A model generated the notes under the pieces. That model was not told where the DNA came from. It was given only the letters and a program-made list of their open reading frames with translations, and searched no databases. Source: Candidatus Nealsonbacteria bacterium DGGOD1a (GTDB lineage: Bacteria > Patescibacteriota > Minisyncoccia > Minisyncoccales > UBA5738). From it: a DNA stretch of 64,000 nucleotides. Position 1 is the stretch's first letter. Each line of letters starts with the position of its first letter. This document shows positions 4,695 to 54,478 of the stretch, piece after piece. The translations under genes were made by a program, and so were the position numbers. The stretch spans positions 905,128 to 969,127 of the forward strand of contig CP092821.1 in the NCBI GenBank assembly GCA_022530585.1, in the 5' to 3' direction.

Positions 4695-4742
4695 TTGCGC
4701 AAGGTCGCACCTTGCAAGCTTGCAAGGTGCGACCTTGCGCAA
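4695..4742. repeat. REPIN-like perfect palindrome (family 1, core CAAGGTCGCACCTTGCA), 48 bp
   Basis: TTGCGCAAGGTCGCACCTTGCAAG followed by its exact reverse complement. Lies 15 nt beyond the stop of the Y1 transposase gene. Confidence 0.9.
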
Positions 4743-4756
4743 CTATTCCCTTGGGA

Positions 4757-5494
4757 TTACCGCGGTAATGACCCCTTGTTCTTGATCCAGCTCTCGGTAA
4801 ATTCCTTAACCGTTCTCATTCCTTTTCCAATATCATCGGATTTGGCAAAAACTTTCAATAGAAAATCTCTTGCCGTAACCGATGGAAAATTTTTAATTCC
4901 GATACTGTCCAAATAACTCGACCATTTGTAATTATTTAAAAATTCAATCGCGGCCTTCAAGTCCTTAACTCCCTCCGTCTTCCAATCCGCGTCGACAAGT
5001 TCAACCGGATTTGAAAATACATATTCCGCCAAATGAATGAATTGATTGTTGTCGCCGGCATGGACCGCTTTGAACCTGCCTTGGAACAACGCACCCATCC
5101 CTTTTCTTTCGTATCTGTCATTAAAATAACCCGTATAACTGTTGCTTAACTTTTTCATAAAAAGAGACACTCCATCGTTGACAAGCGGCCGTAAAATCAA
5201 ATGATAATGATTCGGCATCAAAACAAACGCAATAATGTCAACCAGCAGTTCCCTTTTATGGTTTGACAAGGTCGCACCTTGCAAGCTTGCAAGGTGCGAC
5301 CTTGTCAAACTTTTTTTCCGGCGATCTTGAATCCTTTGGGCCATTCTCACAAAATTGCGGTCATTGCATTCATAAAGAGAAAAAATAAAACGGTAATAAT
5401 CGGAGTCATCCATAAAAACAATTCTTTTCTCTACGCCGCGGTTAAAGGTATGGTAAACTTCGCCGACAATAAATTCCCGTTTTGAATTTGGCAT
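4757..5494 (-). CDS. REP-associated tyrosine transposase (RAYT) / IS200-like Y1 HUH transposase
   Basis: 245 aa, ATG confirmed. N-terminal GEVYHTFNRGVEKRIVF, HUH motif MPNHYHLILRP, Tyr motif AEYVFSNPVE. No tnpB partner. Bracketed by family-1 palindromes. Confidence 0.8.
   Translation of the reverse strand: MPNSKREFIVGEVYHTFNRGVEKRIVFMDDSDYYRFIFSLYECNDRNFVRMAQRIQDRRKKSLTRSHLASLQGATLSNHKRELLVDIIAFVLMPNHYHLILRPLVNDGVSLFMKKLSNSYTGYFNDRYERKGMGALFQGRFKAVHAGDNNQFIHLAEYVFSNPVELVDADWKTEGVKDLKAAIEFLNNYKWSSYLDSIGIKNFPSVTARDFLLKVFAKSDDIGKGMRTVKEFTESWIKNKGSLPR
5261..5310. repeat. Family-1 perfect palindrome (50 bp) located inside the RAYT coding sequence, in frame
   Basis: GTTTGACAAGGTCGCACCTTGCAAG plus its exact reverse complement. 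It encodes ...SLTRSHLASLQGATLSNHK... just upstream of the HUH motif. Confidence 0.9.
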
Positions 5495-5528: not shown

Positions 5529-5584
5529 AAAGTTGCGCAAGGTCGCACCTTGCAAGCTTGCAAGGTGCGACCTTGCGCAACTTT
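5529..5584. repeat. Family-1 perfect palindrome, 56 bp
   Basis: AAAGTTGCGCAAGGTCGCACCTTGCAAG plus its exact reverse complement, 35 nt upstream of the RAYT start codon. Confidence 0.9.
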
Positions 5585-5725: not shown

Positions 5726-7909
5726 CTATTGAAGGTACACCGCCGGGCTGATCCAAGTGGATTCTCCGTTCATGTAAGACGAGGAAGCACTAACAGGAGC
5801 AGCTGAAGTGTGGCCCCACGCAATACCCTTAATCCTTATGTCGTATGTACCCGGACCGCCACGAGTAACAGATGAGTTGGTGGTATTGGCAGTCACCGCA
5901 AAGTTTGCCGACGTTCCCGCCGCAATCTTATAGGTTGTGCCCACGGCAACAGTGCCGGACGGTTGGACAAAATTAACATCAGTCAGACGATAATGAGTAC
6001 CACTCATAACAGTCTCAACGATGAAAGGATCAGTGGTGCTGGCAGTAATATACACATCACCCGTTACGGCCGCAACCTGGATATTGAAGGTCGCAGTCAG
6101 AGTTGAGCTGGCACCCGAGTACGAACCCTGCGTGTTGTCTGTGGTGATGCTGGCCAAAGTAAACACCGGGCCCTCGCCATAGACATACGCCGCATTGCTC
6201 GTCGCGGTACCAGTGCCGGTAAAGGCGGCACCGTTCGTTTTGGAACCAGAGATACTGGTACCGGTCACGGTAACAATATATGTGTATCCATCTTCAGTCG
6301 CGGTCGGAGATGTAACCGTCAACTGATCGTCAACTTTGATCGACAAAGTTTTGGTGGTATCTTTGGGAACCGTGTAGTTCAAATCAGAGAAAGTGGCGTT
6401 TCCACTCGTGGAACCAGGAGTTGCCGTTCCAATAACGGTACCGCTGTCATCAACCAAGTAAACCGTATCAGGAATCTGATTTGTTCCGGTTGTGCTCGCG
6501 AACATGATGTCGGTAACCGTTTCAATCAACATATCATCCTTGGTCGCTTTCACATCGAATGACATCAATTGCGCGCCAACGATATCTCCGTTGGAATCAG
6601 CAACGACATTGCGTTTTTTCGGCGAATTGGCGTTCAAGCTCACGGTCAGCGTGGCGCTTCCGGTTTGCGAAGCATTGACGCTGAAAGTCCGGTAATTGCC
6701 TGTCGTCCAAGCCGCCGCGTTGGCTAAACCGCCGTATTGATTCAAACCGGCCTGGTCAACCGCGCGCACGCTCGTCGCCGAAGGAGTGCCGATAATAATG
6801 TTCTGCTTGCTTCCCGCGGTCGTTACAAACAAACCGCTCGAAATGCCAGGCAAAACATCAACTTTGACGGTCAACACTTTGCTGGTATTCACCGGCACAA
6901 CCACTTTGCTGGTAAATCCGGCAAGAGTGATCTGATAGTCGCTGGCCGACACTTTGGAAACCGTGGTGGAATTCAAAGCGCTGGTCGCAATTTCGGTGTC
7001 CCCATCATACAAATACACATTGGTAAAGTATGAATAAGGTTGAGAATTGAATCTCAAGGTAACGCGCTGGACATCAACATCCGAACCGGTAGCCTTGACT
7101 TTCAAACCCATCACCGCGACTTTGCTGTCGCCTTCATACGCCTTCACGCCATCGGCCGGGCTCGGATTGAGCGAAACCGTGATCGCGCCTTCCGTGCCGG
7201 TCTGGGTCACGCCAGAACCAGTGCTTGATCCTGTCGCGCAAGATTCGCCGGTCGTGGGGCTATAACCGGTGGTCGAAGTGCAACCAGCCGGCAAATTGCT
7301 GACGGTCGCGCAAGATTCGCCGGTGGTCACGCTGTAACCGGTGGTCGAAGTGCAACCAGCCGGCAAGCCACCGGTTGTTCCGGTTGTTCCGGTTGTTCCT
7401 CCGGTTGTTCCGACGGTACCCGCCAACATCGCGTTCAATTTCGCGCGAGTCGACGCACCGACGAATCCGGTTCCCGCGGTCAAACCGACCGGGGTCAAAA
7501 CTTCCGCGGCATATTTGTTCTGGAACGCAACCACCGCGGTTTTGGTCAAACCGCCAAAATAAGTGGTTTCAAATCCCGCCGAACCAACACCTGTCGCCGC
7601 GACTCTGGTGTTAGTATCGGAATTCAACAAGGCTTGCAAACATTTGACATCGTTCCCGGTGGAACCAAGAGTCAAATTATTCGAAAAAGTGATACCCGTG
7701 CAAGCGGCGACATTCGTGTTCACTACGCCGCTGGCAGTCGTTCCTGACGAGGTGCCGCCCAATTGGCCCATCAAACCCGACAATTGGGATTGAAGAGCGG
7801 CAATCTGGGCCGCCAATTCTTCCGCGGTGGCCGCCTGCGCGTTGGACGCGACAGTCGTTCCCGCGATCGCCAAGGCAATCATGCCCGCGATTAATTTCTT
7901 GCTATTCAT
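5726..7909 (-). CDS. Cell-surface protein with peptidoglycan-binding-like domain and Cys-containing tandem repeats
   Basis: 727 aa, ATG confirmed, N-terminal anchor/signal, coiled AEELAAQIAALQSQL. PG_binding_1-like segment (GNDVKCLQALLN...TKTAVVAFQNKY). Two LPAGCTSTTGYSxTTGESCAT repeats. The rest is Thr/Ser/Gly-rich. Confidence 0.7.
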   Translation of the reverse strand: MNSKKLIAGMIALAIAGTTVASNAQAATAEELAAQIAALQSQLSGLMGQLGGTSSGTTASGVVNTNVAACTGITFSNNLTLGSTGNDVKCLQALLNSDTNTRVAATGVGSAGFETTYFGGLTKTAVVAFQNKYAAEVLTPVGLTAGTGFVGASTRAKLNAMLAGTVGTTGGTTGTTGTTGGLPAGCTSTTGYSVTTGESCATVSNLPAGCTSTTGYSPTTGESCATGSSTGSGVTQTGTEGAITVSLNPSPADGVKAYEGDSKVAVMGLKVKATGSDVDVQRVTLRFNSQPYSYFTNVYLYDGDTEIATSALNSTTVSKVSASDYQITLAGFTSKVVVPVNTSKVLTVKVDVLPGISSGLFVTTAGSKQNIIIGTPSATSVRAVDQAGLNQYGGLANAAAWTTGNYRTFSVNASQTGSATLTVSLNANSPKKRNVVADSNGDIVGAQLMSFDVKATKDDMLIETVTDIMFASTTGTNQIPDTVYLVDDSGTVIGTATPGSTSGNATFSDLNYTVPKDTTKTLSIKVDDQLTVTSPTATEDGYTYIVTVTGTSISGSKTNGAAFTGTGTATSNAAYVYGEGPVFTLASITTDNTQGSYSGASSTLTATFNIQVAAVTGDVYITASTTDPFIVETVMSGTHYRLTDVNFVQPSGTVAVGTTYKIAAGTSANFAVTANTTNSSVTRGGPGTYDIRIKGIAWGHTSAAPVSASSSYMNGESTWISPAVYLQ
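7233..7409. repeat. Intragenic tandem repeats: 72-bp unit x ~1.9, followed by CCGGTTGTT 9-mer x3(+1)
   Basis: GTCGCGCAAGATTCGCCGGT... recurs with period 72 (7233 and 7305). CCGGTTGTT is repeated at 7371-7397 and again at 7401-7409, encoding a (GTT)n tract. Confidence 0.85.
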
Positions 7910-8050: not shown

Positions 8051-8096
8051 CGGGAGGGGTTTGAAAATCTTGATCAAGATTTTCAAACCCCTCCCG
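8051..8096. terminator. 46-bp perfect palindrome, possible non-canonical terminator
   Basis: CGGGAGGGGTTTGAAAATCTTGA|TCAAGATTTTCAAACCCCTCCCG, 15 nt after the stop at 8111. The T-run (GAAGCTTTTTTG) is on the plus-strand side only, so it is not a classical terminator for the minus-strand gene. Confidence 0.4.
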
Positions 8097-8931: not shown

Positions 8932-8993
8932 AAGTTTTACAAGGTCGCACCTTGCACGATTGCAATCGTGCAAGGTGCGACCTTGTAAAACTT
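8932..8993. repeat. Family-1 palindrome variant, 62 bp perfect
   Basis: AAGTTTTACAAGGTCGCACCTTGCACGATTG plus its exact reverse complement. Same AAGGTCGCACCTTGCA core, different centre. Lies between the sigma and anti-sigma genes. Confidence 0.9.
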
Positions 8994-10480: not shown

Positions 10481-10514
10481 AGAAATATTCCCCCCGTACA
10501 TATTGTTATCTTGG

Positions 10515-10641
10515 ATTGCGAAACCATTAAATTCAAATACCGTTGAAGGTCTAACCCTTGCGATTACGCAAGGGACAGACCCCAAAAGCCAAGCGCGACG
10601 CAATGCTCAAAGCATTGCAGTAGCAATGCTTTGAGCATTGC
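10515..10641 (+). repeat. Family-2 nested-stem element (copy A), followed by a 42-bp palindrome
   Basis: ATTGCGAAACCATTAAATTCAAATAC..GGTCTAACCCTTGCG-ATTA-CGCAAGGGACAGACC (core 10548-10581)..CCCAAAAGCCAAGCG. Then GCAATGCTCAAAGCATTGC-AGTA-GCAATGCTTTGAGCATTGC (10600-10641). Confidence 0.85.
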
Positions 10642-12374: not shown

Positions 12375-12558
12375 ATCGCGCAATCGTTGTTTGTCGCAGC
12401 ATATGCGCGATGTCTCCCCATTTTGCGAATTTACGCAATAAAGAACGCGCATCGGAAAAAATCAGACTTGGGCGTGCCAAAAAGAGAAACCTCGCAGATT
12501 CGCAAATATGGGAGGACATCGCGCATGAGCCCGCTGCAACAAACAACGATTGCGCGAT
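12375..12558. repeat. 184-bp imperfect inverted repeat (arms ~56-61 bp)
   Basis: Left arm ATCGCGCAATCGTTGTTTGTCGCAGC..ATGCGCGATGTCTCCCCATTTTGCGAAT. Reverse complement of right arm ATCGCGCAATCGTTGTTTGTTGCAGCGGGCTCATGCGCGATGTCCTCCCATATTTGCGAAT. Confidence 0.85.
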
Positions 12559-12566
12559 CCGTACCG

Positions 12567-15275
12567 CTACGCCTCCACTTTCGCCGCCTTGCGCGTTTTG
12601 ATGTTCCTGACCGGCGAGTTTACGACAATCTCGTTGTTTTGGGCGTCCACCAAAACATTATCGCCGTCTTTAACCGTTCCGGAAACGATTTTCAACGCCA
12701 GCGCGTCCAAAACCAGCTTCTGAATCACGCGGCGCAACGGCCGGGCGCCCAAATTGGAATCAAACCCGCGCTGGGCCAGCATTTCTTTGGCCGCGGCGGT
12801 TATTGTCATACGGATGTTCTTTGAATGCAAGCGCTTGTCGACTTTTTGCAATTCCAAATCAACGATTTTGGTTATTTCCTCTTTGCCAAGATAATTGAAA
12901 ATCACGATCTCATCGACCCGATTTAAAAATTCCGGGCGGAAAGCCTCCTTTAAAACCGCCATCACCTTATCGTGAGTTTTTTCCTTGGTGATGTCTTCGG
13001 CGGATTGCATCGAAAATCCCAGCGACGCTTCCCGGGCGATGATATCCGACCCGATATTGGAGGTCATAATCAGAATCGCGTTTTTGAATGACGCCGTGCG
13101 GCCCTTGGCATCGGTCAAGCGGCCGTCTTCCAATATCTGCAACAAGATATTGAACACTTCCGGATGAGCTTTTTCGATTTCATCCAAAAGAACCACCGAA
13201 TAAGGCCGGCGCCGGATCTTTTCGGTCAACTGTCCGCCTTCTTCGTAACCGACATAGCCCGGCGGCGAACCGACAATCCGGGAAACCGTGTGCTTTTCCA
13301 TGTACTCGGACATATCCATCCGAATCAAAGCATTCTCGTCGTTGAACAGAAATTCGGCCAAAGCCTTGGCGGTTTCGGTCTTGCCCACGCCCGTCGGCCC
13401 CAAAAACATAAACGAACCCAACGGCCGGTTTTCTTCCGAAATTCCGGCGCGCGCCCGGCGAATGGCATTGGAAATCGCCGTAATCGCGGCCTCCTGGCCG
13501 ATCACCCGGCGTTTTAAAATATCCTCCAAATTTTGCAATTTGCGCGCTTCTTCCTCCATCAAGCGCATCACCGGAATCCCGGTCCAGCGGGAAACCACCT
13601 TGGCCACATCTTCCTCGGTCACCTTTTCTTTGAGAATCGGCCGATCTTTCTGAAACCGCGCCAATTTTTTTTCGGCGCCTTTCAATTCCTTTATCAACTG
13701 GGGAATCTGGCCGTATTTCAACTCCGCCACGCGCTGCAAATTGGCGTGAGACTCCTCCCGCTCGATTTCAAACCGATAATCTTCCAATTGTTTTTTCAAA
13801 ACTTTGATTTTGCTGATGGTTTCCTTTTCCGAATGCCACTTGGCTTCCAATGATTTTGACTTCTCGTCAAGATCGGCCAATTCGCGGTTAATCGCTTTCA
13901 ATCGCCGAAAAGTATTTTCATCGCGATCGTTTTTAATCGCTTCGTATTCCACCCGCAAATGCTGGAGTTCTTTGCGCATTTTTTCCACTTCCGTGGGTTC
14001 GGATTCAATATCCAAACGCAGAGAGCTCATCGCTTCGTCCATCAGATCGACCGCCTTGTCCGGCAAAAACCGGTCGGAAATGTAACGCGCGGCCAAATCG
14101 ACGCACGCTTCCAGGCCTTTTTCGTCGATCTTCACGCCGTGGTGCAATTCGTATTTTTCCTTCAAGCCAAGCAGAATCAATTTGGCATCCTCGACCGACG
14201 GCTCGGCCACGAACACCGGCTGGAACCGGCGTTCCAAAGCCGGATCTTTTTCGATATATTTTTGAAATTCTTTCAAAGTCGTGGCGCCAATGGCTTTCAA
14301 TTCCCCGCGCGCCAGCGCCGGCTTCAACAAATTCGACGCGTCAATCGTGCCATCGGCCGCGCCCGCGCCCACCAGCGTGTGCAATTCATCAATAAAGAAA
14401 ATATAGCGGCCCGCGGCGCGATCCATTTCGCGCAACAGCGCCTTGACGCGGTCTTCAAACTCCCCGCGGTATTTCGTGCCCGCAATCAACGCGCCCAAAT
14501 CAAGCGAAATGATTTCTTTGTCGCGCAGGCTTTCGGGCGCCGCGCCCGAAACGATGCGCTGGGCCAAACCCTCGATAATGGCCGTTTTGCCAACGCCCGC
14601 TTCGCCGATGAGCACCGGATTGTTTTTGGTGCGGCGGCTCAACACTTGCATCAAGCGCCGAATCTCGTTTTCGCGGCCGATCACCGGGTCCAGCTTGCCC
14701 TGCCGCGCCAATGTGGTTAAATTGCGCGTGTATTTTTCAATAACCTGATATTTCGATTCCGGTTCCGGATCGGTAATGCGCTGGCCGCCGCGAACCTTCA
14801 TCAATTCTTTAAGAACAGCCTCATAATCCAATTCGCCGGTTTCCGGCGTCGCGAAACCCCCGTCGGAATGAATGAATTCGGCTTTGTCCAGAATTTCCTT
14901 GGCCTTGGTTTGCGTGCTCAAAAGCGCCAGAAAAAGATGCTCCACCGAAATGAATTCATCGCCCATTTTGTTGGCCTCCTCGCGGGCTTTGTCCAAAACT
15001 TTGGCCATATCCTGCGTCAGATAAAACTGGCCGAACGCCTGCGGGCTGGCGATTACGGGCAATTTGACCAAACCCGAAACCGCCCGGCGCTTCATATTCT
15101 CGGCGTCGACCGCCAAACGCTCCAATAAATTGAGAATCAAACTTTTGTCCTGCGACAACAGAGACACCAGCAAATGCAAAGCATCGATCTGCTGCTGGTT
15201 TTTTTCGCGCGCCAAATCCTGCGCGTATAGGATCGCCTCTTGAGCCTTGTGGGTAAAATTAGCCGCTGAATTCAT
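12567..15275 (-). CDS. clpB: ATP-dependent chaperone ClpB
   Basis: Two AAA+ modules ([24 protein letters not shown]), a long coiled-coil middle domain and a Clp_N start ([17 protein letters not shown]). Track start 15296 is TTG; ATG at 15275. Confidence 0.95.
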
Positions 15276-34256: not shown

Positions 34257-34269
34257 ACCCTGCAGAAAT

Positions 34270-34386
34270 TTAAAGTTAAAAAATCAAAATAAAAAATGAC
34301 AATTTAAAATTAAAAGTTCAAAATGCGCGGACATTTTACATTTTGCATTGTCATTTTGATTTTTGATTTTTACATTTTAAATTTTC
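34270..34386. repeat. Family-5 AT-rich inverted-repeat cassette, copy 1
   Basis: AAAAATCAAAATAAAAAATGACAATTTAAAATT ... ATTTTACATTTTGCATTGTCATTTTGATTTTTGATTTTTACATTTTAAATTTT, between the ftsZ start and the ftsA stop. Confidence 0.85.
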
Positions 34387-39510: not shown

Positions 39511-39626
39511 TTGAATTGCGAAACGCTTTGCATTTTGGGGTCTATCCCTTGCGCTTGTCCCGAGGCTTTTGCGAGGGGTAATCGCAAGGGTCAGACCCCT
39601 TTAGAGTATTTGAATTTAATGGTTTC
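39511..39626 (-). repeat. Family-2 nested-stem element (copy D, inverted orientation, extra insert in the loop)
   Basis: TTGAATTGCGAAACGCTTTGCATTTTGGGGTCTATCCCTTGCG[CTTGTCCCGAGGCTTTTGCGAGGGGTA]ATCGCAAGGGTCAGACCCCTTTAGAGTATTTGAATTTAATGGTTTC. Confidence 0.85.
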
Positions 39627-39649
39627 TTAATTCAAAAAATCTTATGTTT

Positions 39650-42127: not shown

Positions 42128-42139
42128 CGAACAAAGTTA

Positions 42140-42258
42140 AAAGATAAAAATCAAAATGAAAAATGACAATGTAAAATTAAAAATTATCAAATTTTAAAAT
42201 TGTTTCATTTTAAATTTTGAACTGTCATTTTTCATTTTGATTTTTACATTTTTAATTT
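42140..42258. repeat. Family-5 cassette, copy 3
   Basis: AAAAATCAAAATGAAAAATGACAATGTAAAATT ... ACTGTCATTTTTCATTTTGATTTTTACATTTTTAATTTT, between the hisS start and the lepB stop. Confidence 0.85.
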
Positions 42259-42903: not shown

Positions 42904-43500
42904 ATGGAGCAAAAAACTATCTTAATCGTCGGGTTGGGCAATCCCGGGCAGGATTATCGCCGCACCCGGCACAATATGGGTTTTATGGCCGCGGACGCGT
43001 TTGCCAAAAAACACAATTTTGGCGATTTTGCGATGGTCGAAGATAACGCGATGGTTTCGGCGGGCGAATTCGGCGGCAAGACCGTTATTCTAGCCAAGCC
43101 GCAAACATTTATGAATAAATCCGGGATCGCGGCCAAGCGGTTGGCCAAGCGCTATTCCCTGTTTAAAAACAAAAAGTTTGACAATCTCTGGGTTATCAAC
43201 GACGATTTGGACATCCCTCTTGGAAAAATAAAAATTTCCCAAAACCGCAACGCCGCCGGCCACAAAGGCGCGCAATCGATTATTGACCAAATGAAAACCA
43301 AAAATTTTGTCCGCTTCCGCGTCGGCATCGCGCCCCATACCGCGACCCTGAAAAAAATCCCCGGCGACAAATTGGTTCTAAAAAAAATCTCCCCCAAGGA
43401 GCAAATAGAATTCGACAAAGCTGTTGATTTGACCGTCTCGGCCATAGAAACCGCGCTGGCTGAAGGAATCGAAAAATCAATGACCGAATTCAACCAATAA
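42904..43500 (+). CDS. pth: Peptidyl-tRNA hydrolase
   Basis: LIVGLGNPGQDYRRTRHNMGF... Start moved to ATG 42904. Confidence 0.9.
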   Translation: MEQKTILIVGLGNPGQDYRRTRHNMGFMAADAFAKKHNFGDFAMVEDNAMVSAGEFGGKTVILAKPQTFMNKSGIAAKRLAKRYSLFKNKKFDNLWVINDDLDIPLGKIKISQNRNAAGHKGAQSIIDQMKTKNFVRFRVGIAPHTATLKKIPGDKLVLKKISPKEQIEFDKAVDLTVSAIETALAEGIEKSMTEFNQ

Positions 43501-43511
43501 TTTAGCATTTT

Positions 43512-43551
43512 CAAGGTCGCACCTTGCCATAATCGGCAAGGTGCGACCTTG
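43512..43551. repeat. Family-1 hairpin variant (17-bp perfect stem)
   Basis: CAAGGTCGCACCTTGCC-ATAATC-GGCAAGGTGCGACCTTG, 12 nt after the pth stop. Confidence 0.9.
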
Positions 43552-43707
43552 CACAAACTGCATTTTGGAAACAAAAAAAGACCAGCCCTTCCAAAAAATT
43601 AAAAATTTCTTGATAGTGTCAATGGTCTCTATTTTTTAACCTCCGACAACCCCTCCTTATTACTCATTTTTCATCTCCTCCTTATAAAATTTTTTGCAAG
43701 TTTAAAA

Positions 43708-44595
43708 ATGGTGTATAGTAAAAAAGTGATGGATTACAACATCAAACATATCACTGAAGCCGATATTGAATTCCCCAATTGCTTGCGCACCATCCCCTCA
43801 CGGCCCAAAGAATTATATTTGCGCGGTATTTTGGATCCGGTTAAACCGTGCGTGGCCGTGGTTGGTTCGCGTATCCCGTCCACCTATGGCAAGCAAGCCG
43901 TCCACGATATTGTGAGCGGATTGTCCCGCGCCGGCGTTTGCGTTATCTCCGGTATGGCGCCGGGTATTGATACCTTGGCTCATCAAACCGCCTTGGAATG
44001 CAACGGCTTGACCGTTGGCGTAATCGGCACCGGATTGGACGAAAAATCGTTTTTCCCCAAACAAAACCTTGACTTGGCGACAAAAGTGGTTAATACTGGC
44101 GGTTGTTTGGTCAGCGAATACCCGGCAAGCTTTAAAGCCACCAACTACTCTTTCCCCCAGCGCAACCGCATCATCGCCGGCCTGTCGCTGGCAGTTCTGG
44201 TCATCGAAGCCAAGGAAAAATCCGGTTCGCTCATCACCGCCGAATGGGGTCGCAAACAGCACAAACCGGTGTTCGCGGTTCCCGGATCGATCTACTCGAC
44301 AAACTCCAAGGGCTGTAATTGGCTGTTAAAGAAAGGCGGGCTGGCCTGCGACTCCGCCTTGGATATTCTAAACGCCTTGGGTATCGCGCCAATATCGCCG
44401 AAAATCGCGGCAACGGCGGGTACCCCCGAAGAGCAAAAAATTCTCGACGCGTTAAAAAACGGAGCGTTGGATATCAATCAAATAATTCTGGCCGCCAAAC
44501 TCCCCGCCCCAACCGTGATCGGCCTGATCCCGGTTATGGAAATCAACAATATCATCCGCGATTTGGGCAACGGGGAATACTGCCTGAACAATTAA
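43708..44595 (+). CDS. dprA: DNA-processing protein DprA (Smf)
   Basis: ATG confirmed. VAVVGSRIPSTYG..., ISGMAPGIDTLAHQ, ...FPQRNRIIAGLS..., C-terminal wHTH-like tail. Confidence 0.85.
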   Translation: MVYSKKVMDYNIKHITEADIEFPNCLRTIPSRPKELYLRGILDPVKPCVAVVGSRIPSTYGKQAVHDIVSGLSRAGVCVISGMAPGIDTLAHQTALECNGLTVGVIGTGLDEKSFFPKQNLDLATKVVNTGGCLVSEYPASFKATNYSFPQRNRIIAGLSLAVLVIEAKEKSGSLITAEWGRKQHKPVFAVPGSIYSTNSKGCNWLLKKGGLACDSALDILNALGIAPISPKIAATAGTPEEQKILDALKNGALDINQIILAAKLPAPTVIGLIPVMEINNIIRDLGNGEYCLNN

Positions 44596-44596
44596 T

Positions 44597-44710
44597 TTAA
44601 AATCGAAAAATCAAAATGGAAAATGACAGTGTAAAATTTAAAATTATTGGATTCAAATTTTTTACATTTTAAATTGTCATTTTGATTTTTGATATTTACA
44701 TTTTTAATTT
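44597..44710. repeat. Family-5 cassette, copy 4
   Basis: AAAATCGAAAAATCAAAATGGAAAATGACAGTGTAAAATTT ... AAATTGTCATTTTGATTTTTGATATTTACATTTTTAATTTTT. Ends 2 nt before the topA ATG. Confidence 0.85.
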
Positions 44711-44712
44711 TT

Positions 44713-46833
44713 ATGGATCTCATCATTGTCGAATCGCCCACAAAAGCCCGGACTTTGCAAAAATTTTTAGGTTCGAACTATAAAATTCTGTCATCGTACG
44801 GCCATGTGCGCGATCTGCCCAAGGGCTCTTTTGGCGTTGATCTTGAAAATAATTTCACGCCGAAATACACCCTCACCGCCAAAGGCAAAACCACGATTAA
44901 AGAACTCAAAGCCGAAGTTAAAAAAGCCGACAAGATATTTTTAAGCACTGATCCGGACCGCGAAGGCGAAGCCATCGCGTGGCATTTGATCGAAGCCCTG
45001 AAACTGGACAAACCGGCCACCAAAAAAATTGAAGGCCCGGCTTATCGGCGCATTGAATTCCACGAAATCACCAAACGCGCCATTGATGAAGCCCTGCGAA
45101 ACCCCCGGGAACTTGATTTTAACTTGGTCAACGCCCAGCAAGCGCGCCGCGTTTTGGATCGCATCGTCGGCTATCAACTTTCCCCTTTCCTTTGGAAAAA
45201 AATCGCCAAAGGCCTGTCGGCCGGCCGCGTCCAGTCCGTGGCCGTACGGCTCATTGCCGAGCGCGAACGCGAAATTGAAGCCTTCAAGCCCGAAGAATAC
45301 TGGGAAGTTTTAGCGACCCTCAAAAACACCAAAAAACAACCGCTCAAAGAATTTGCCGCCAAGCTGGTGAAAATCAACGAAAAAGTTTTGGACAAGCTGG
45401 AAATCACCGATGAAGCCAAAGCGATTGATATTCAAAATGGCCTTGAAAACGCGCGCTATTCCATCGTCGCGATTGATAAAAAAGAAACCCGCAAGAATCC
45501 AAACCCGCCGTTCACCACTTCCACTCTCCAGCAAGCCGCGTGGCAAAAATTCCACCTCACGGCCAAAGCCGCAATGATGACCGCCCAACAATTGTACGAA
45601 ATGGGATTGATCACCTACCACCGCACCGACTCGCTCAATTTGTCGGAGCAGTCGCTGGCGGCGGCAAAACAATTCATCATTCAAACTTACGGAGAACAAT
45701 ACCATCCCGGCGGGTACAACACCTACAAAACCAAAGCCAAGGGCGCCCAAGAAGCCCACGAAGCCATCCGGCCGGCCTACCCGGAGCAAACCCCGGAAAT
45801 GGCTCAAACCGACAAAAATCTCACCCGGCCGCAATATAAATTATACGAGCTGATCTGGCAAAGATTTATCGCCTGCCAAATGACACCCGCGATTTTTGAC
45901 GGCATGAGCGTTGATATTGACGCGATTGGAGTTTCAAACACGAATTATGGCTTCAAGGCCAACGGCCAAACCTTGAAATTCGACGGTTATTTGAAAGTCT
46001 ATCCCTCAAAATTCGAACCGGTTGACTTGCCGGCGATGGAAACCGCCGAAGATTTGGAATTTATCAAACTTGATCCGACCCAGCATTTCACCAAGCCGCC
46101 GGCGCGCTTCAATGAAGCCAGCCTGATCAAAGCTCTGGAAGAATTCGGCATCGGGCGGCCGTCAACCTACGCGCCGATCATCACTACGATTCAAACCCGC
46201 AACTATATTGAAAAAGACGATAAAAAATCTTTCAAACCCACGGAAATGGGTCTGATGGTCAATGACATTCTGGTGGCGCACTTTCCGCGGATCGTGGATA
46301 TCGGTTTTACCGCCAAAATGGAAGAAGAATTCGATGAAATCGCCCAAGGGTCGATGGATTGGGTAAAGATGATGCGCGATTTCTACGCGCCGTTCAAGGA
46401 AAACTTGGATGCCAAATATAAAGAAGTGGAAAGCAAAAAAACCCAAGTGGTCGCCACCGATAAAATTTGCCCCAAGTGCGGCGCGAATCTGGTGATTAAA
46501 ATGGGACGCTTCGGAAAATTCTACGCCTGCCCCAAATTTCCGGAATGCAAGCACACCGAAAATATGGAACCGGCCAAGCCCGCGTTTGATGTGGAAATCC
46601 CCTGCCCCAAATGCGGGACCGGCCACATCGTGGAAAAGAAAACGAAAAAACGAAAAATTTTCTACGGCTGTTCGGCCTACCCCGATTGCGACTTCGCCCT
46701 CTGGGACAAACCCACCGGCGCCAAGTGCGAAAAATGCGGCAGCATAATGATCGAAACCAAACGCAAGCAAGTGAAATGCTCCAACAAAGAATGTTCAGCA
46801 AATGCAAAATTGAAAAATCAAAATGAAAAATGA
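44713..46833 (+). CDS. topA: DNA topoisomerase I
   Basis: Toprim LIIVESPTKA, DPDREGEAIAWH, active-site region GLITYHRTDS, four C-terminal CxxC...CxxC zinc ribbons. Start moved to ATG 44713. Confidence 0.95.
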   Translation: MDLIIVESPTKARTLQKFLGSNYKILSSYGHVRDLPKGSFGVDLENNFTPKYTLTAKGKTTIKELKAEVKKADKIFLSTDPDREGEAIAWHLIEALKLDKPATKKIEGPAYRRIEFHEITKRAIDEALRNPRELDFNLVNAQQARRVLDRIVGYQLSPFLWKKIAKGLSAGRVQSVAVRLIAEREREIEAFKPEEYWEVLATLKNTKKQPLKEFAAKLVKINEKVLDKLEITDEAKAIDIQNGLENARYSIVAIDKKETRKNPNPPFTTSTLQQAAWQKFHLTAKAAMMTAQQLYEMGLITYHRTDSLNLSEQSLAAAKQFIIQTYGEQYHPGGYNTYKTKAKGAQEAHEAIRPAYPEQTPEMAQTDKNLTRPQYKLYELIWQRFIACQMTPAIFDGMSVDIDAIGVSNTNYGFKANGQTLKFDGYLKVYPSKFEPVDLPAMETAEDLEFIKLDPTQHFTKPPARFNEASLIKALEEFGIGRPSTYAPIITTIQTRNYIEKDDKKSFKPTEMGLMVNDILVAHFPRIVDIGFTAKMEEEFDEIAQGSMDWVKMMRDFYAPFKENLDAKYKEVESKKTQVVATDKICPKCGANLVIKMGRFGKFYACPKFPECKHTENMEPAKPAFDVEIPCPKCGTGHIVEKKTKKRKIFYGCSAYPDCDFALWDKPTGAKCEKCGSIMIETKRKQVKCSNKECSANAKLKNQNEK

Positions 46834-46920
46834 CAATTAAAAATGTAAAATTTATAATTCAATAATTTTAAATTTTACATTGTCATTTTGATTTTTGATT
46901 TTTACATTTTAAATTTTTAT
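46808..46920. repeat. Family-5 cassette, copy 5; overlaps the topA 3' end
   Basis: AAATTGAAAAATCAAAATGAAAAATGACAATTAAAAATGTAAAATTT ... ATTTTACATTGTCATTTTGATTTTTGATTTTTACATTTTAAATTTTT. The left arm encodes topA ...KLKNQNEK and its stop codon. Confidence 0.85.
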
Positions 46921-47020
46921 TTTTCTCTTGATTTTTCCCCAATTTCGCGCTACCCTACAATCATCAATTTGAAGATTGGCGGTGCATTATGTCATTGTTA
47001 TCTTTAGTTCCTAACTTTTT

Positions 47021-47104
47021 GCCGAAGTGGTGAAACTGGCATACACGCAGCACTCAAAATGCTGTGAGGGCAACCTCGTGTGGGTTCAACTCCCACCTTC
47101 GGCA
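47021..47104 (+). tRNA. tRNA-Leu (anticodon CAA), class II, no encoded CCA
   Basis: Manual fold: acceptor GCCGAAG/CTTCGGC with discriminator A; D-stem GTG/CAC; anticodon stem CAGCA/TGCTG with loop CTCAAAA; 13-nt variable arm (GAGG-GCAA-CCTC); T-arm GTGGG-TTCAACT-CCCAC. Confidence 0.85.
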
Positions 47105-47443: not shown

Positions 47444-47487
47444 TCAAAAGGGTCCGACCCTTTTTAAAAAGGGTCGGACCCTTTTGA
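47444..47487. repeat. Family-3 perfect palindrome (44 bp), core AAAAGGGTC(C/G)GACCCTTTT
   Basis: TCAAAAGGGTCCGACCCTTTTT plus its exact reverse complement, 17 nt upstream of the DUF134 start. Confidence 0.9.
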
Positions 47488-48859: not shown

Positions 48860-48889
48860 CAATGTTTTGTCAAGCCAAAAGGGCGATTA

Positions 48890-50357
48890 TGTCATTTAAA
48901 AGTAGTAATGTCATACTTGCGTCCAAGTAGAAATGTCATACCTGGTATGATTGGTGGATAAAACATAACCCACCAATATGGAAAAAGAATTATTCAAGAT
49001 GACGCAAAAAGAGCTGGACAGGTATGAAGTAATAAGAAAATTGATCGCCAAAGAAATCACTCCGGGCGATGCGGCCAAGCAGCTGGGGCGGTCGGTAAGG
49101 CAGGTAAAGCGATTGCGCAACAAAGTGCGGGAGAAAGGCGCCAATGGGATCATTCACGGCTTGCGAGGCAAGCAAAGCAACAATAAGACCGATCTTAAAA
49201 TCTGGGAAAAATCCGGACAAATAATTTCAGAAAAGTATCCTGATTTCGGCCCGACCTTGGCGCATGAAAAACTGGTTGAGGTTGAAGGAATAAAAATTGG
49301 CAAGCAGACCACGCGCAATTTAATGATCGCAAAAAAGATTTGGATGCCCAAACCAAGAAAACAAAACCAGGAATTCCGCTGCCAAAGAGAACGCAAAGAA
49401 TCGCCGGGCGAGCTGGAACAATTCGACGGCTGTTACCACTTCTGGTTTGAGAAACGCGGCGATGAATCTTGTTTGTTGGCCTCCGTCGACGATGCCACCG
49501 GCCGGATCACCCGGGCGGAATTCACGGATAGCGAAAGCGTCATCAATGTGTTTCAATTCTGGAAAGGCTACCTCCAAGAATCAGGCAAACCGATAGCCAT
49601 CTACCTGGATAAATTCAGTACATATAAGATCAATCACAAAAATGCAAAAGACAACAGCGAAATGATCACCCAGTTTCAGAGAGCCGCCCGGGAACTGGAT
49701 ATAACCCTGATCACCGCCAACAGCCCGCAAGCCAAAGGCCGAATCGAACGGCTCTTTGACACTTTGCAGGACCGGCTGGTCAAGGAATTGCGATTGCGCG
49801 GCATCAGCGATATCGCCGCGGCCAGCAAATTCTTAAAAGAAGAATTCATTCCGGATTTCAATCAAAGATTTTCGGTGATTCCCAAAAAGAAAAACGATCT
49901 GCACCGGCAGCTGCCCGATTTTCAAAGTTCAAATCTTGACGCGATATTTTCCGTCCAATCGCAAAGGCGGGTACAGAATGATTTCACGATAAGGTTCAAA
50001 AACCAATGGATACAGATCGCCAAAGAGCAGATCGCCACCGTGCGCCGCAAGGATGAAATTTTGATGGAAGAGCGGCTCGACGGATCGCTGGCGATCCGTC
50101 TGCGGGATAAATATTTAAACTTCAAAATCCTGCCGGCCAAGCCGTTGAAAGCCAAAGAATTGATTGCCGCCATACCGGCAAAAAGAATCATCTCCAAGCC
50201 ACCGGCGGATCATCCTTGGCGCAAACAAATCGCCGCTGAAATCGCAAAAATCAATTGTTAAAATATTTTTCCGGAAATAACAATACTAATTCTACAAAAG
50301 TCAAGTATGACATTTCTACTTAAATTCCGGGTATGACATTTCTACTTGTATTTGACA
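48890..50357 (+). mobile_element. Intact insertion sequence (1468 bp), IS1202/ISNCY-like, with a 16-bp target-site duplication
   Basis: Ends TGTCATTTAAAAGTAGTAATGTCATAC (left) and GTATGACATTTCTACTTGTATTTGACA (right) form imperfect IRs. Each end carries two AAGTAG(A/T)AATGTCATAC motifs. Flanked by the direct repeat GCCAAAAGGGCGATTA (48874-48889 and 50358-50373). Confidence 0.85.
48978..50261 (+). CDS. DDE transposase (rve/integrase core) with N-terminal HTH
   Basis: 427 aa, ATG confirmed. N-terminal TQKELDRYEVIRKLIAKEITPGDAAKQLGRSVRQVKRLRNKVREKGANGIIHGLRGKQSN. DDE candidates VDDATG, YLDKFSTY, QAKGRIERLF. Confidence 0.85.
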   Translation: MEKELFKMTQKELDRYEVIRKLIAKEITPGDAAKQLGRSVRQVKRLRNKVREKGANGIIHGLRGKQSNNKTDLKIWEKSGQIISEKYPDFGPTLAHEKLVEVEGIKIGKQTTRNLMIAKKIWMPKPRKQNQEFRCQRERKESPGELEQFDGCYHFWFEKRGDESCLLASVDDATGRITRAEFTDSESVINVFQFWKGYLQESGKPIAIYLDKFSTYKINHKNAKDNSEMITQFQRAARELDITLITANSPQAKGRIERLFDTLQDRLVKELRLRGISDIAAASKFLKEEFIPDFNQRFSVIPKKKNDLHRQLPDFQSSNLDAIFSVQSQRRVQNDFTIRFKNQWIQIAKEQIATVRRKDEILMEERLDGSLAIRLRDKYLNFKILPAKPLKAKELIAAIPAKRIISKPPADHPWRKQIAAEIAKINC

Positions 50358-50364
50358 GCCAAAA

Positions 50365-50390
50365 GGGCGATTACATGGAATCGCCCCTAC
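50365..50390 (+). repeat. Family-4 GTAG-tailed hairpin (target of the IS insertion)
   Basis: GGGCGATTACATGGAATCGCCCCTAC. Its left arm is part of the IS target-site duplication. Confidence 0.85.
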
Positions 50391-50399
50391 AAATCCAAT

Positions 50400-51536
50400 T
50401 CATATTCCCAAATTCGGTTCGGATGTCAAATCATCAGGGCTGGCAACCGCCTCCCCCCTTTTAAAAGCAAAGTAGCCCGCGACTCCGGCCATGGCCGCGT
50501 TATCCATTGATAAATCCGCGCCGGGCGCGAGAAATTTCATATTCAGTTCATCAGCCGCTTTTTGCATTGCCTCGCGCAAAGCCGCATTGGCGCTCACGCC
50601 GCCGCCGATAATGATTGATTTGGCGGCAAATTCTTTGGCCGCCCGCGCCGTTTTTGAAACCAGCACATCAACGATCGCCTGTTGAATCTCAAAACTCATC
50701 ATTCGCGGATATTCCGGCGATTTTCGCGTTTCTTCGTTCTGCTTTTGATGCGCGTACAGCACCGCGGTTTTCAATCCCGAAAAACTGAAATTGTAATTTT
50801 TTTGGGCAATCATCGGCCGCGGCAATTTGACTTTGGTTTCCGAAGGAGCATCTAAAAGGGTCGGACCCTTTTTATTCAAAAAGGGTCCGACCCTTTTAGA
50901 ATATTTTTGGGCATATTTTGCAATCTCCGGGCCGCCGGGATAGCCCAAGCCCAAAATGCGCGCGGCTTTGTCAAAACACTCGCCCGCCGCGTCATCTTGG
51001 GTTTGTCCCAGCAATTTGTAATCGCCGATGCCGCTAGCCAAGAACAACAGCGTGTGTCCGCCCGAAACCACCAAACAAACCGCCGGCAAATAGTTTTTGG
51101 CAAATTTTTCTTCGCCGATTTTCAAAGTTATCAAATTCGCCAAAAAATGCGCCTCCAAATGATTGGCTCCCGCCAACGGCAAGTTGTATTTCTTCGCCAA
51201 ATCTTGCGCGAAATTTATTCCCGTCCATAGGCACGGATCCAAGCCCGGCCCTTGCGTTACGACGATAAATTTTAATTTTGATAAATCAAATTTTTTTGTC
51301 GCGTCTTCAAAAACGAAAGGCAGATTTTTCTGATGCTCGCGTTTTGCCAAAAACGGATACACTCCGCCGTATCCGGCGTGCAATTCGGTTTGCGAAGAAA
51401 CAACATTGGACAGCGCCTCAATCTTCTCCAATTTCCCCTTATCCTCCTTTGCCCGCAAAACGCTGATTGAAGTGTCGTCGCAAGAAGTCTCAATCGCCAA
51501 AAAATACAGTTCTCCGCCTTTTTTTGCAAATTGCAT
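50400..51536 (-). CDS. tsaD: tRNA N6-adenosine threonylcarbamoyltransferase TsaD, carrying a ~17-aa palindrome-encoded insertion
   Basis: ATG confirmed. IETSCDDTSISV, ANHLEAH, GLGYPGGPEI, NFSFSGLKT, IIGGGVSAN. See repeat 50851-50900. Confidence 0.9.
   Translation of the reverse strand: MQFAKKGGELYFLAIETSCDDTSISVLRAKEDKGKLEKIEALSNVVSSQTELHAGYGGVYPFLAKREHQKNLPFVFEDATKKFDLSKLKFIVVTQGPGLDPCLWTGINFAQDLAKKYNLPLAGANHLEAHFLANLITLKIGEEKFAKNYLPAVCLVVSGGHTLLFLASGIGDYKLLGQTQDDAAGECFDKAARILGLGYPGGPEIAKYAQKYSKRVGPFLNKKGPTLLDAPSETKVKLPRPMIAQKNYNFSFSGLKTAVLYAHQKQNEETRKSPEYPRMMSFEIQQAIVDVLVSKTARAAKEFAAKSIIIGGGVSANAALREAMQKAADELNMKFLAPGADLSMDNAAMAGVAGYFAFKRGEAVASPDDLTSEPNLGI
50851..50900. repeat. Family-3 palindrome (23-bp perfect arms, 4-nt centre) inside tsaD, in frame
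   Basis: TCTAAAAGGGTCGGACCCTTTTT-ATTC-AAAAAGGGTCCGACCCTTTTAGA. It encodes SKRVGPFLNKKGPTLL. Confidence 0.9.
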
Positions 51537-51549
51537 AATTGCTTTAAAT

Positions 51550-51643
51550 TACGAAACCATTGAATGCGAATGCTTTAAAGCGGTCTAACCCTTGCGATTA
51601 CGCAAGGGATAGACCCCAAATGCAAAGCGGTTCGCAATTCAAG
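51550..51643 (+). repeat. Family-2 nested-stem element (copy B)
   Basis: TACGAAACCATTGAATGCGAATGCTTTAAAGCGGTCTAACCCTTGCGATTACGCAAGGGATAGACCCCAAATGCAAAGCGGTTCGCAATTCAAG, immediately upstream of the tsaD start. Confidence 0.85.
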
Positions 51644-51665
51644 ATAATTGATAATTCATTGAAAA

Positions 51666-54241: not shown

Positions 54242-54267
54242 TTATTATTTATAATTTTCTTGAATTA

Positions 54268-54360
54268 AGAAATCATTAAATACGAATGCTATTACAGGGG
54301 TCTAACCCTTGCGATTACACAAGGGATAGACCCCAAATGCAAAGCGTTTCGCAACTCAAA
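54268..54360 (+). repeat. Family-2 nested-stem element (copy C)
   Basis: AGAAATCATTAAATACGAATGCTATTACAGGGGTCTAACCCTTGCGATTACACAAGGGATAGACCCCAAATGCAAAGCGTTTCGCAACTCAAA, upstream of the GlmU-like start. Confidence 0.85.
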
Positions 54361-54478
54361 GTAATTTATAGCTCGTGAGTTTGAAAATTTCCCGGATAAT
54401 TTTTAAAATGTTGAAATCAAATGTTGAAATCAAATATCAACAGCTTAAAAACTTTGTTGATATTTGATTTCAACAGCG

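Follow-up and report, generated by a model that had tools for sequence, protein, structure and literature searches.

How does a perfect DNA palindrome come to lie, in frame, within a gene as conserved as tsaD, and how does the encoded enzyme accommodate it? The question is raised by a 64,000-nt stretch of the genome of Candidatus Nealsonbacteria bacterium DGGOD1a (Patescibacteriota; contig CP092821.1, positions 905,128 to 969,127), which we refer to as the window. An earlier note, made from the letters of the window alone, had drawn attention to a palindrome at 50851-50900 inside tsaD and had compared its behaviour with that of Rickettsia palindromic elements (RPEs). Here we show that this palindrome is a doublet of short inverted hairpins with a close relative elsewhere in the window, and that the loop of TsaD in which it lies is a hotspot where unrelated hairpin cassettes are found in closely related genes. 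We estimate at roughly two in three the probability that the palindrome is a selfish element akin to repetitive extragenic palindromes (REPs) and their doublets (REPINs), read through in its sole open frame and tolerated in a disordered loop, with tolerance and recombination mainly responsible for the hotspot.

An inverted hairpin doublet is translated within an intact tsaD gene

The host of the palindrome is an intact 378-aa open reading frame (ORF) on the minus strand (50400-51536). Its product scores 326.3 bits against the TIGR03723 TsaD model (cut-off 296.1), matches TsaD chains in the PDB at E about 1e-64 and is predicted to adopt the corresponding fold. The catalytic and metal-binding residues H126, H130 and D345 (His-x3-His plus Asp) fall in invariant columns of a 27-sequence alignment, and the GLGYPGGP and PRPM motifs on either side of the insert are both intact. 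The 64-kb window holds no second tsaD, and the ORF is uninterrupted; the alternative of a pseudogene relieved by a functional copy, which the earlier note had raised, found no support in these data.

The palindrome reads TCTAAAAGGGTCGGACCCTTTTT-ATTC-AAAAAGGGTCCGACCCTTTTAGA, with 23-nt arms that are 100% complementary and a 4-nt spacer. Its first base is in codon phase 0, and its translation yields residues 213-229 of TsaD, SKRVGPFLNKKGPTLL plus 2 nt (YSKRVGPFLNKKGPTLLDA in context). On each strand, two of its three reading frames contain stops and a single one is open. Each arm is itself a hairpin, a 19-nt unit AAAAGGGTC-G/C-GACCCTTTT with a perfect 9-bp stem. Unit 1, with G at its centre, spans 50854-50872, and unit 2, its inverted copy with C at the centre, spans 50879-50897. 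The element, which we designate K (no strand is assigned to it or to the other doublets described below), is an inverted doublet of the 19-nt unit and is REPIN-like in this respect. Miniature inverted-repeat transposable elements have terminal inverted repeats, a target-site duplication and empty sites in relatives; K is an inverted repeat over its whole length, and a search for a clean empty site gave none. Rfam contained no match to it at the gathering score, only generic miRNA-precursor hairpin hits far below the cut-offs, and the GTAG or CGTC tetranucleotide tag that serves as a criterion for one class of REPs (PMC3733652) is absent from the unit and its immediate flanks.

Between GLGYPGGP and PRPM the window TsaD has 35 aa, rather than the 33 aa first counted, and Thermotoga maritima TsaD has 16 aa. 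In the nearest palindrome-free relatives (loci L001 and L003) this stretch comprises 22 aa. An alignment of orthologues therefore bears out the expected shorter segment where the palindrome is missing, and puts the net gain over L001 and L003 at 13 aa, or about 39 nt, in place of the insertion of about 51 nt suggested in the earlier note. The exact insertion boundaries are not fixed by this comparison because there is no empty allele on a close backbone.

We built an AlphaFold2 model of the window TsaD on 27 homologues (mean predicted local distance difference test score, pLDDT, 86; predicted template-modelling score 0.84). Foldseek aligned it with TsaD/YgjD structures at target-normalised TM-scores of 0.87-0.89. 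The sole internal stretch of low confidence comprises residues 216-233 (pLDDT below 50), located after helix 201-215 and before the PRPM strand. The K insert is thus predicted to form a disordered excursion from a TsaD loop at a position compatible with the fold, which agrees with the loop placement that such a model had been proposed to reveal. Together, the intact ORF, the conserved catalytic residues and the confidently predicted fold suggest that TsaD carrying the insert is still functional.

Independent assemblies (JGI, ENA and other) likewise contain this 50-nt cassette, with its gene context unchanged, at loci L088, L089, L092 and L093. Palindromes can in principle cause assembly errors, so that a chimeric or hairpin-induced misassembly deserves mention; we found no specific support for one, the tsaD ORF stays open, and with the cassette recurring across assemblies an artefact is hardly credible.

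Immediately 3′ of the tsaD stop lies an ISNCY-family insertion sequence (48877-50396), with its transposase gene at 48978-50261 (NF033594, 387 bits). It is missing from the syntenic loci L088, L085 and L093 and is therefore a recent insertion.

Hairpin doublets are dispersed in the window and flank a RAYT-like gene

A second K doublet, near-identical to the tsaD copy, is located between genes at 47444-47487, 3.4 kb away and downstream of a ZIP transporter gene. Its hairpin units are identical to those in tsaD, it is likewise an inverted doublet, and it has the same TC...GA ends; the family relationship between the two palindromes, already recognised from the sequence, is thus secure. L088 and L089 lack a stretch of 121 nt that includes the intergenic copy. 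Neither an empty site nor a target-site duplication is readable from this indel, which adjoins a region of variable gene content. In the window as a whole the core GGGTCSGACCC has four exact copies and one copy with a single mismatch, compared with 0.57 expected, and none of 100 shuffles reached five copies. At a distance of 340 nt from the intergenic doublet there is a tRNA gene on the plus strand (47021-47104; Rfam, 55.9 bits).

Besides the two full K copies, the window contains five doublets of another, related family, A, built of CAAGGTCGCACCTTG units. Three of them are associated with a gene on the minus strand (4757-5494) for a Y1 (HUH) transposase (Pfam Y1_Tnp, 36 bits) that resembles the REP-associated tyrosine transposases (RAYTs). 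Its translation contains the motifs YHxxxRG, HUH (as HYH) and FQGRF, and scores 45.6 bits against the NCBIfam REP_Tyr_transpos model, below the cut-off of 80. Family-A doublets flank the gene on its 3′ side (4695-4742) and its 5′ side (5529-5584). A further one, with 25-nt perfect arms, lies in frame inside the gene (5261-5310), and its translation, SLTRSHLASLQGATLSN, separates the N-terminal YHxxxRG strand from the HUH motif. This confirms the RAYT case, cited in the earlier note, as a second in-frame example from a different repeat family. The remaining family-A doublets are located at 8932-8993 (perfect 31-nt arms) and 43499-43564 (imperfect). The family-A units show neither a GTAG nor a CGTC tag, and the K family was not seen beside a RAYT gene within the window. 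The apex GGTCG-N-ACC is common to K and A units. By inspection, in most hairpin families of the window and its relatives the stem ends in ...GT, is followed by a 3-nt loop and resumes with AC..., a pattern that hints at a common mode of recognition.

The existence of dispersed copies bears on the possibility that the palindromes arise in situ, through template-switch (quasipalindrome) mutation that would also keep them perfect in an unconstrained loop, with no mobile element involved. Perfect arms fit such a process, as do apparent 'compensatory' double changes between orthologous hairpins and the palindrome of L094, which extends outward with different outer bases. It is, however, difficult to reconcile with a near-identical 44-nt intergenic copy that has the same TC...GA ends 3.4 kb away, with one unit (T-type, see below) being present in both topoisomerase I and tsaD of L095, or with related families being dispersed in intergenic DNA and around the RAYT-like gene. 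We therefore consider an origin in situ very unlikely.

The TsaD loop is a hotspot for hairpin cassettes

The genome records closest to the window are metagenome-assembled genomes of Patescibacteria (Candidate Phyla Radiation, CPR). A metagenome scan with a single TsaD protein returned just four loci, its peptide patterns being overly specific. In an alignment of 70 homologues, no other part of TsaD varies in length nearly as much as the segment between GLGYPGGP and PRPM. Among the 57 closest TsaD sequences (at least 62% identity), 17 have short segments of 19-24 aa, presumed to be empty, and 40 have long ones. Among the long segments at least five types can be told apart, here named K, V, R, S and T, and eight segments are unclassified.

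Type K, the window's doublet, recurs with identical arms in L088, L089, L092 and L093, and variants of it are present in L094 and L097. Type V consists of AGTGGAAGTCAAACCTCCACT, a 25-nt spacer and an inverted copy (L090; degenerate in L005), and the related designation V2 is used for TTGTTGAGGTCAAACCTCAACAA of L085. Two copies of ACAGGGGTTCAACCCCTGT make up type R (L002, L006, L091 and L095). Type S reads GGCAAAAAATT...AATTTTTTGCC (L096 and L098) and type T GCGGGTTAGACCCACGC (L095). Every cassette examined was rich in hairpins at the DNA level (L002, L005, L006, L085, L090, L091, L094, L095, L096, L097 and L098). Thus, long segments in relatives go with other DNA palindromes rather than with an equally long, palindrome-free homologous stretch, and the proposal of an insertion stands.

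We compared the occurrence of perfect hairpins of at least 8 bp inside and outside the segment. They were found in the segment in 12 of the 69 distinct tsaD genes (4.1 kb in total), compared with 35 in the other 73 kb (binomial test, P about 5e-6, or about 1e-4 with families counted once). Long perfect hairpins are also present in the segment of distant Patescibacteria tsaD genes with 46-54% identity (L009, L014, L018, L028, L030 and L047), in some cases without a gain in length, and L014 and L030 have a copy related to the tsaD hairpin elsewhere in their own locus. No long perfect hairpin was detected in the segment of the non-CPR tsaD genes examined. We conclude that the TsaD loop is a hotspot for hairpin cassettes; this, together with the cassette turnover described below, had been missed at first.

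In L030, the hairpin related to that of its tsaD (CAGAGATCGGGTCTCTG) is at 12552-12575, inside a FolD-like gene and without obvious length change.

Cassettes turn over and are probably exchanged between lineages

Outside the segment, the tsaD genes of L090 and L091 are 98.4% identical in DNA and 98.2% in protein. Their cassettes differ, being of type V in L090 and of type R in L091; they have just the right-hand end GAACCCCTG in common, and extra substitutions are found directly to the right of the cassette. Identical cassettes, in turn, were found on backbones just 86-90% identical in protein. When a neighbour-joining tree of the backbones was constructed, cassette types interleaved on it, and their distribution does not follow the gene tree. 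The K arms have 0 substitutions in 46 positions on backbones that are 94%, 89% and 84% identical in DNA, and the 4-nt spacer (GAAT, GGAT or ATCC) is the sole change among K cassettes. Compared with L092, the window has a mosaic profile of identity, in which a 98-100% tract around the cassette lies beside stretches of 73-78% (73-90% otherwise).

Different elements can also occupy the very same place. In L085, whose tsaD is 94.8% identical in DNA to that of the window outside the segment, the V2 hairpin coincides exactly with K hairpin 1 in nucleotide position and reading frame, with five of the nine stem pairs changed on both sides. L094, with a 75%-identical backbone, carries a K-type element in the opposite orientation, with 27-nt arms and different outer bases. 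Some cassettes are composite: that of L095 consists of half a T unit and two R units, that of L090 of the V doublet and an R remnant, and that of L098 of three to four modules, with 53 aa between GLGYPGGP and PRPM. Judging from the sequences, these patterns suggest that elements have repeatedly entered the loop or been replaced there, and that short-tract recombination moves whole cassettes between lineages.

A difference of the same kind was observed at an intergenic spot between the CofD and NTP-transferase genes (window 54422-54475; L088 7277-7323; L085 944-990), where close relatives have different double hairpins. TGTTGAAATCAAATATCAACA occurs there twice in the window, and CATAGGTTTCACCTATG twice in L088 and L085. 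Therefore, cassette replacement is not confined to tsaD.

In L090 (12975-13079) and L091 (around 5735-5750), tsaD is followed by two membrane-protein genes and then by a duplicated fragment of the tsaD 3′-end (LLLFAAGAAGYFAFRRGEVVKPDDLKSQPNLSL*), truncated in L091, and a hairpin. The region looks like an island that has integrated into the 3′ end of tsaD and supplies a replacement end.

The coincidence of K hairpin 1 and V2 in position and frame raises the question of targeted integration. Here, the elements or their enzyme would recognise the tsaD spot, or hairpins already present in it, as a landing pad, with subsequent replacement or nesting. Composite and nested cassettes that retain remnants of earlier ones are compatible with this, and so are the hairpins at the site in distant Patescibacteria tsaD genes, with related copies in the loci of L014 and L030. 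REPs are, moreover, known targets of insertion sequences according to the sections of PMC3733652 used here. Yet 17 of the 57 close relatives have short and presumably empty segments, the right-hand boundaries of cassettes vary widely, and no shared target motif is definable. Inserts at other TsaD sites and in other genes (see below) are what a tolerance filter predicts, and recombination accounts for the sharing of cassettes across backbones. On balance we regard targeting as unlikely. It is rather doubtful that hairpin (REP-like) elements across the Patescibacteria preferentially target this loop, which follows helix 201-215, or the hairpins already in it, and replace one another there.

The hairpin is probably not a device serving tsaD

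The region of the K palindrome in tsaD is predicted to fold into a very stable RNA structure (-40.5 kcal/mol, z = -9.8). Together with arms that do not differ even on backbones of only 84% identity, although the spacer does, this stability could be taken to mean that the hairpin has been selected for an action in cis on tsaD, such as attenuation, RNA processing or stability, or antisense protection, or that the peptide is beneficial. A terminator-like structure with a G+C stem followed by a T-run was called on the plus strand, antisense to tsaD (50852-50899). The intergenic copy is terminator-like on the minus strand (47487-47444), behind the ZIP transporter gene, and hairpins are present at the tsaD site across the phylum. 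In the sense direction of tsaD, however, no U-tract follows the hairpin. The cassette families differ wholly in sequence, length and peptide, with V and R types lacking T-runs, and many relatives are without any hairpin at the site. The peptide is predicted to be disordered, there is no matching Rfam family, and a recent recombination tract explains the conservation equally well. We find a functional structure improbable; the K element is best described as selfish DNA on which selection acts as a filter, and we do not regard it as working for TsaD.

Two further possibilities were considered and rejected. Inspection did not support mimicry of a tRNA anticodon, through which TsaD would autoregulate its own mRNA: the loops are of 1-4 nt, and the spacer is unconserved (GAAT, GGAT, ATCC). 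As for a restriction site or an uptake signal, there is no consistent site across families, and the density of about 1 per 30 kb appears to be far below that of known uptake sequences.

In-frame inserts occur at other TsaD sites and in other genes

The loop is not the sole place where such elements are translated. Topoisomerase I of L095 contains a 48-nt T-type doublet in frame (TTGCGCGGGTTAGACCCACGCAAGCTTGCATGGGTCTAACCCGCGCAA), and the same T-type unit is present in tsaD of this locus. CofD of L096 has an in-frame 30-nt perfect palindrome, and topoisomerase I of L005 and L006 a 10-aa insert. In TsaD itself, occasional inserts are found near residues 32-34, 80 and 332. Related hairpin families are dispersed in the intergenic DNA of L005, L095 and L014. 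Most orthologous genes compared in syntenic loci are without such inserts.

The inserts near query residue 332 were seen in L005, L094 and L097, and those near residues 32-34 in P0031, P0045, P0054 and P0056. Their peptides (NVNPPSYKATAGA, DPSSLKLRRGA and GKPFDKAQGEP) are typical of translated repeats. The DNA of the residue-332 inserts in L005, L094 and L097 consists of imperfect palindromes built around CCTTCGC...GCTACGGCG.

Other repeats in the window

Several additional repeats were noticed in the window. One of them, about 100-115 nt long, occurs in intergenic DNA at 10511-10604, 39520-39640, 51537-51656 and 54251-54366, as well as in L088 (11634-11754) and L085 (3585-3699); one copy lies just 5′ of the tsaD start. 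Within the repeat, GCTTTGCATTTGGGGTCTATCCCTTG...CAAGGGTyAGACCCC forms a hairpin whose core is K/T-like, and TTCTTAATTCAAnAAAA comes after it; Rfam gave no hit at the gathering score. It may be a repeat that carries a promoter or leader, or an unknown RNA.

A repeat class distinct from the G+C hairpin doublets is formed by AT-rich imperfect palindromes of about 110-130 nt, with arms about 80% complementary, which are located at gene ends (34266-34384, 42133-42258, 44594-44709 and 46800-46936). We also observed an intergenic double hairpin at 10600-10641, GCAATGCTCAAAGCATTGC / GCAATGCTTTGAGCATTGC, and at 8051-8096 a perfect palindrome of 46 nt, CGGGAGGGGTTTGAAAATCTTGA/TCAAGATTTTCAAACCCCTCCCG.

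A model for the origin of the K insert

The explanation that we favour is one of selfish spread and passive tolerance. Elements of the REP/REPIN-like kind are dispersed in this Patescibacteria lineage, and family A flanks the RAYT-like gene. K would be a small non-autonomous element made of two inverted 19-nt hairpins and mobilised by a RAYT-type enzyme. One copy would have landed in the loop after helix 201-215 of TsaD. Lying in its open frame, it would simply be translated, with about 16 extra residues bulging from a disordered surface loop, and because the copy merely adds residues there, the essential enzyme would keep working. Since the loop is presumed to tolerate almost anything, it would accumulate elements, so that different hairpin families come to occupy it in close relatives and sometimes stack into composites. 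Short-tract homologous recombination would then pass whole cassettes between related lineages and produce the patchy distribution.

Several observations weigh against this scenario. No K-type copy offers a clean empty site or a target-site duplication, so that mobility has to be deduced indirectly. There are just two full K copies in 64 kb, and the RAYT-like gene, which scores below the NCBIfam cut-off, goes with family A and not with K. The complete lack of substitutions in the K arms on an 84%-identical backbone could mean that selection acts on the palindrome itself. The left edges of cassettes from different families lie within a few nucleotides of one point, in the same frame for K and V2, and this coincidence is tighter than a purely permissive loop needs. 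Finally, an insensitive search for K peptides among 5.8 billion proteins, made with a 44-aa artificial concatenate, yielded eight word-sharing candidates, none with E <=10, and gave no indication of this family in other proteins.

The in-frame colonisation of essential genes by palindromic DNA that is probably selfish, first regarded as an oddity of Rickettsia, extends to the Candidate Phyla Radiation and its reduced genomes, here in the company of REP/REPIN-like doublets and a RAYT-like gene. The tsaD loop can be viewed as a natural experiment, with at least five unrelated cassettes, composites, empty alleles on close backbones and a swap between 98.4%-identical alleles. It may be used for studying the insertion of elements, the rate of their turnover, their spread by recombination and the tolerance of a conserved enzyme to random peptides. 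There is also a warning for annotation, since translated repeats can lie behind variable lengths and odd low-complexity peptides among CPR proteins. Were the loop a landing pad after all, tsaD would offer the smallest known class of mobile DNA a 'safe harbour' of the homing type, and a hypervariable peptide would be generated on an essential, universally conserved enzyme.

Comparison with known systems

We compared K with several described classes of repeats; our search of the literature on in-frame palindromic repeats in CPR/Patescibacteria returned nothing relevant. According to the excerpts of PMC10969869 that we draw on, which refer to Ogata et al. (2000), RPEs are selfish palindromic repeats that occur between genes as well as in frame within unrelated and often essential genes, where their positions suit the protein fold. 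They are about 100-150 bp long, form families specific to Rickettsia (RPE-1 to RPE-10) and code for conserved peptides of 30-50 aa. K resembles them in being a palindrome that lies in frame and preserves the ORF, as do the elements in the RAYT-like gene and in topoisomerase I and CofD of relatives. Its predicted position at the surface (residues 216-233, pLDDT below 50) would likewise be compatible with the fold. Unlike RPEs, K is a 50-nt doublet of a 19-nt hairpin in an unrelated phylum, and is set apart by size and host. The RPE-like behaviour proposed in the earlier note thus holds for the in-frame colonisation of an intact gene and does not extend to the element itself, which is closer to REP/REPIN doublets than to the 100-150-bp RPEs.

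Terminator-like mobile repeats are represented by SPRITE of Streptococcus pneumoniae, an entry in the list given in the same excerpts of PMC10969869. Similar to repeats of this type, K has an A-tract, a G+C stem and a T-tract, making up a hairpin that resembles a bidirectional intrinsic terminator, and its intergenic copy sits just behind a gene. It differs from them in that the tsaD copy is in a coding region and has no U-tract in the sense direction, and in that other cassette families are without T-runs.

REPINs of the REPIN-RAYT system consist of two inverted REP hairpins and have been described as extragenic (Bertels and Rainey; PMC5581495, PMC8049555). The inverted hairpin doublets reported here match this arrangement, and the gene for the RAYT-like Y1 transposase, which has HUH and Tyr motifs, is single-copy and lies between doublets of family A. 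In contrast to that system, copies in our loci are translated, one of them inside the RAYT-like gene, and the RAYT-like protein is divergent (45.6 bits compared with the cut-off of 80).

The closest parallel to an intragenic doublet is provided by the GTAG/CGTC REPs (Di Nocera et al. 2013, PMC3733652). In the sections of that study considered here, they are 20-40-nt palindromic units, often arranged as inverted dimers, from several phyla, and are associated with RAYT genes flanked by repeats. They are mostly intergenic and sometimes located wholly inside ORFs, and dimers, which encode 20-30 aa in frame, make up over half of these intragenic copies; the host genes code for nucleic-acid enzymes, including tRNA synthetases and pseudouridine synthases. 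K, too, is composed of short palindromic units in an inverted dimer and lies in frame in a gene for a tRNA-modification enzyme. Unlike the REPs of those sections, K and A units have no tag, the host belongs to the Patescibacteria (CPR), and K is not beside a RAYT gene. A single loop with at least five cassette families and allele swapping was not encountered in the same sections. In-frame REP dimers and RPEs are thus already known; what is new is the phylum, the hypervariable, recombining site in tsaD and a RAYT-like gene invaded by its own repeat.

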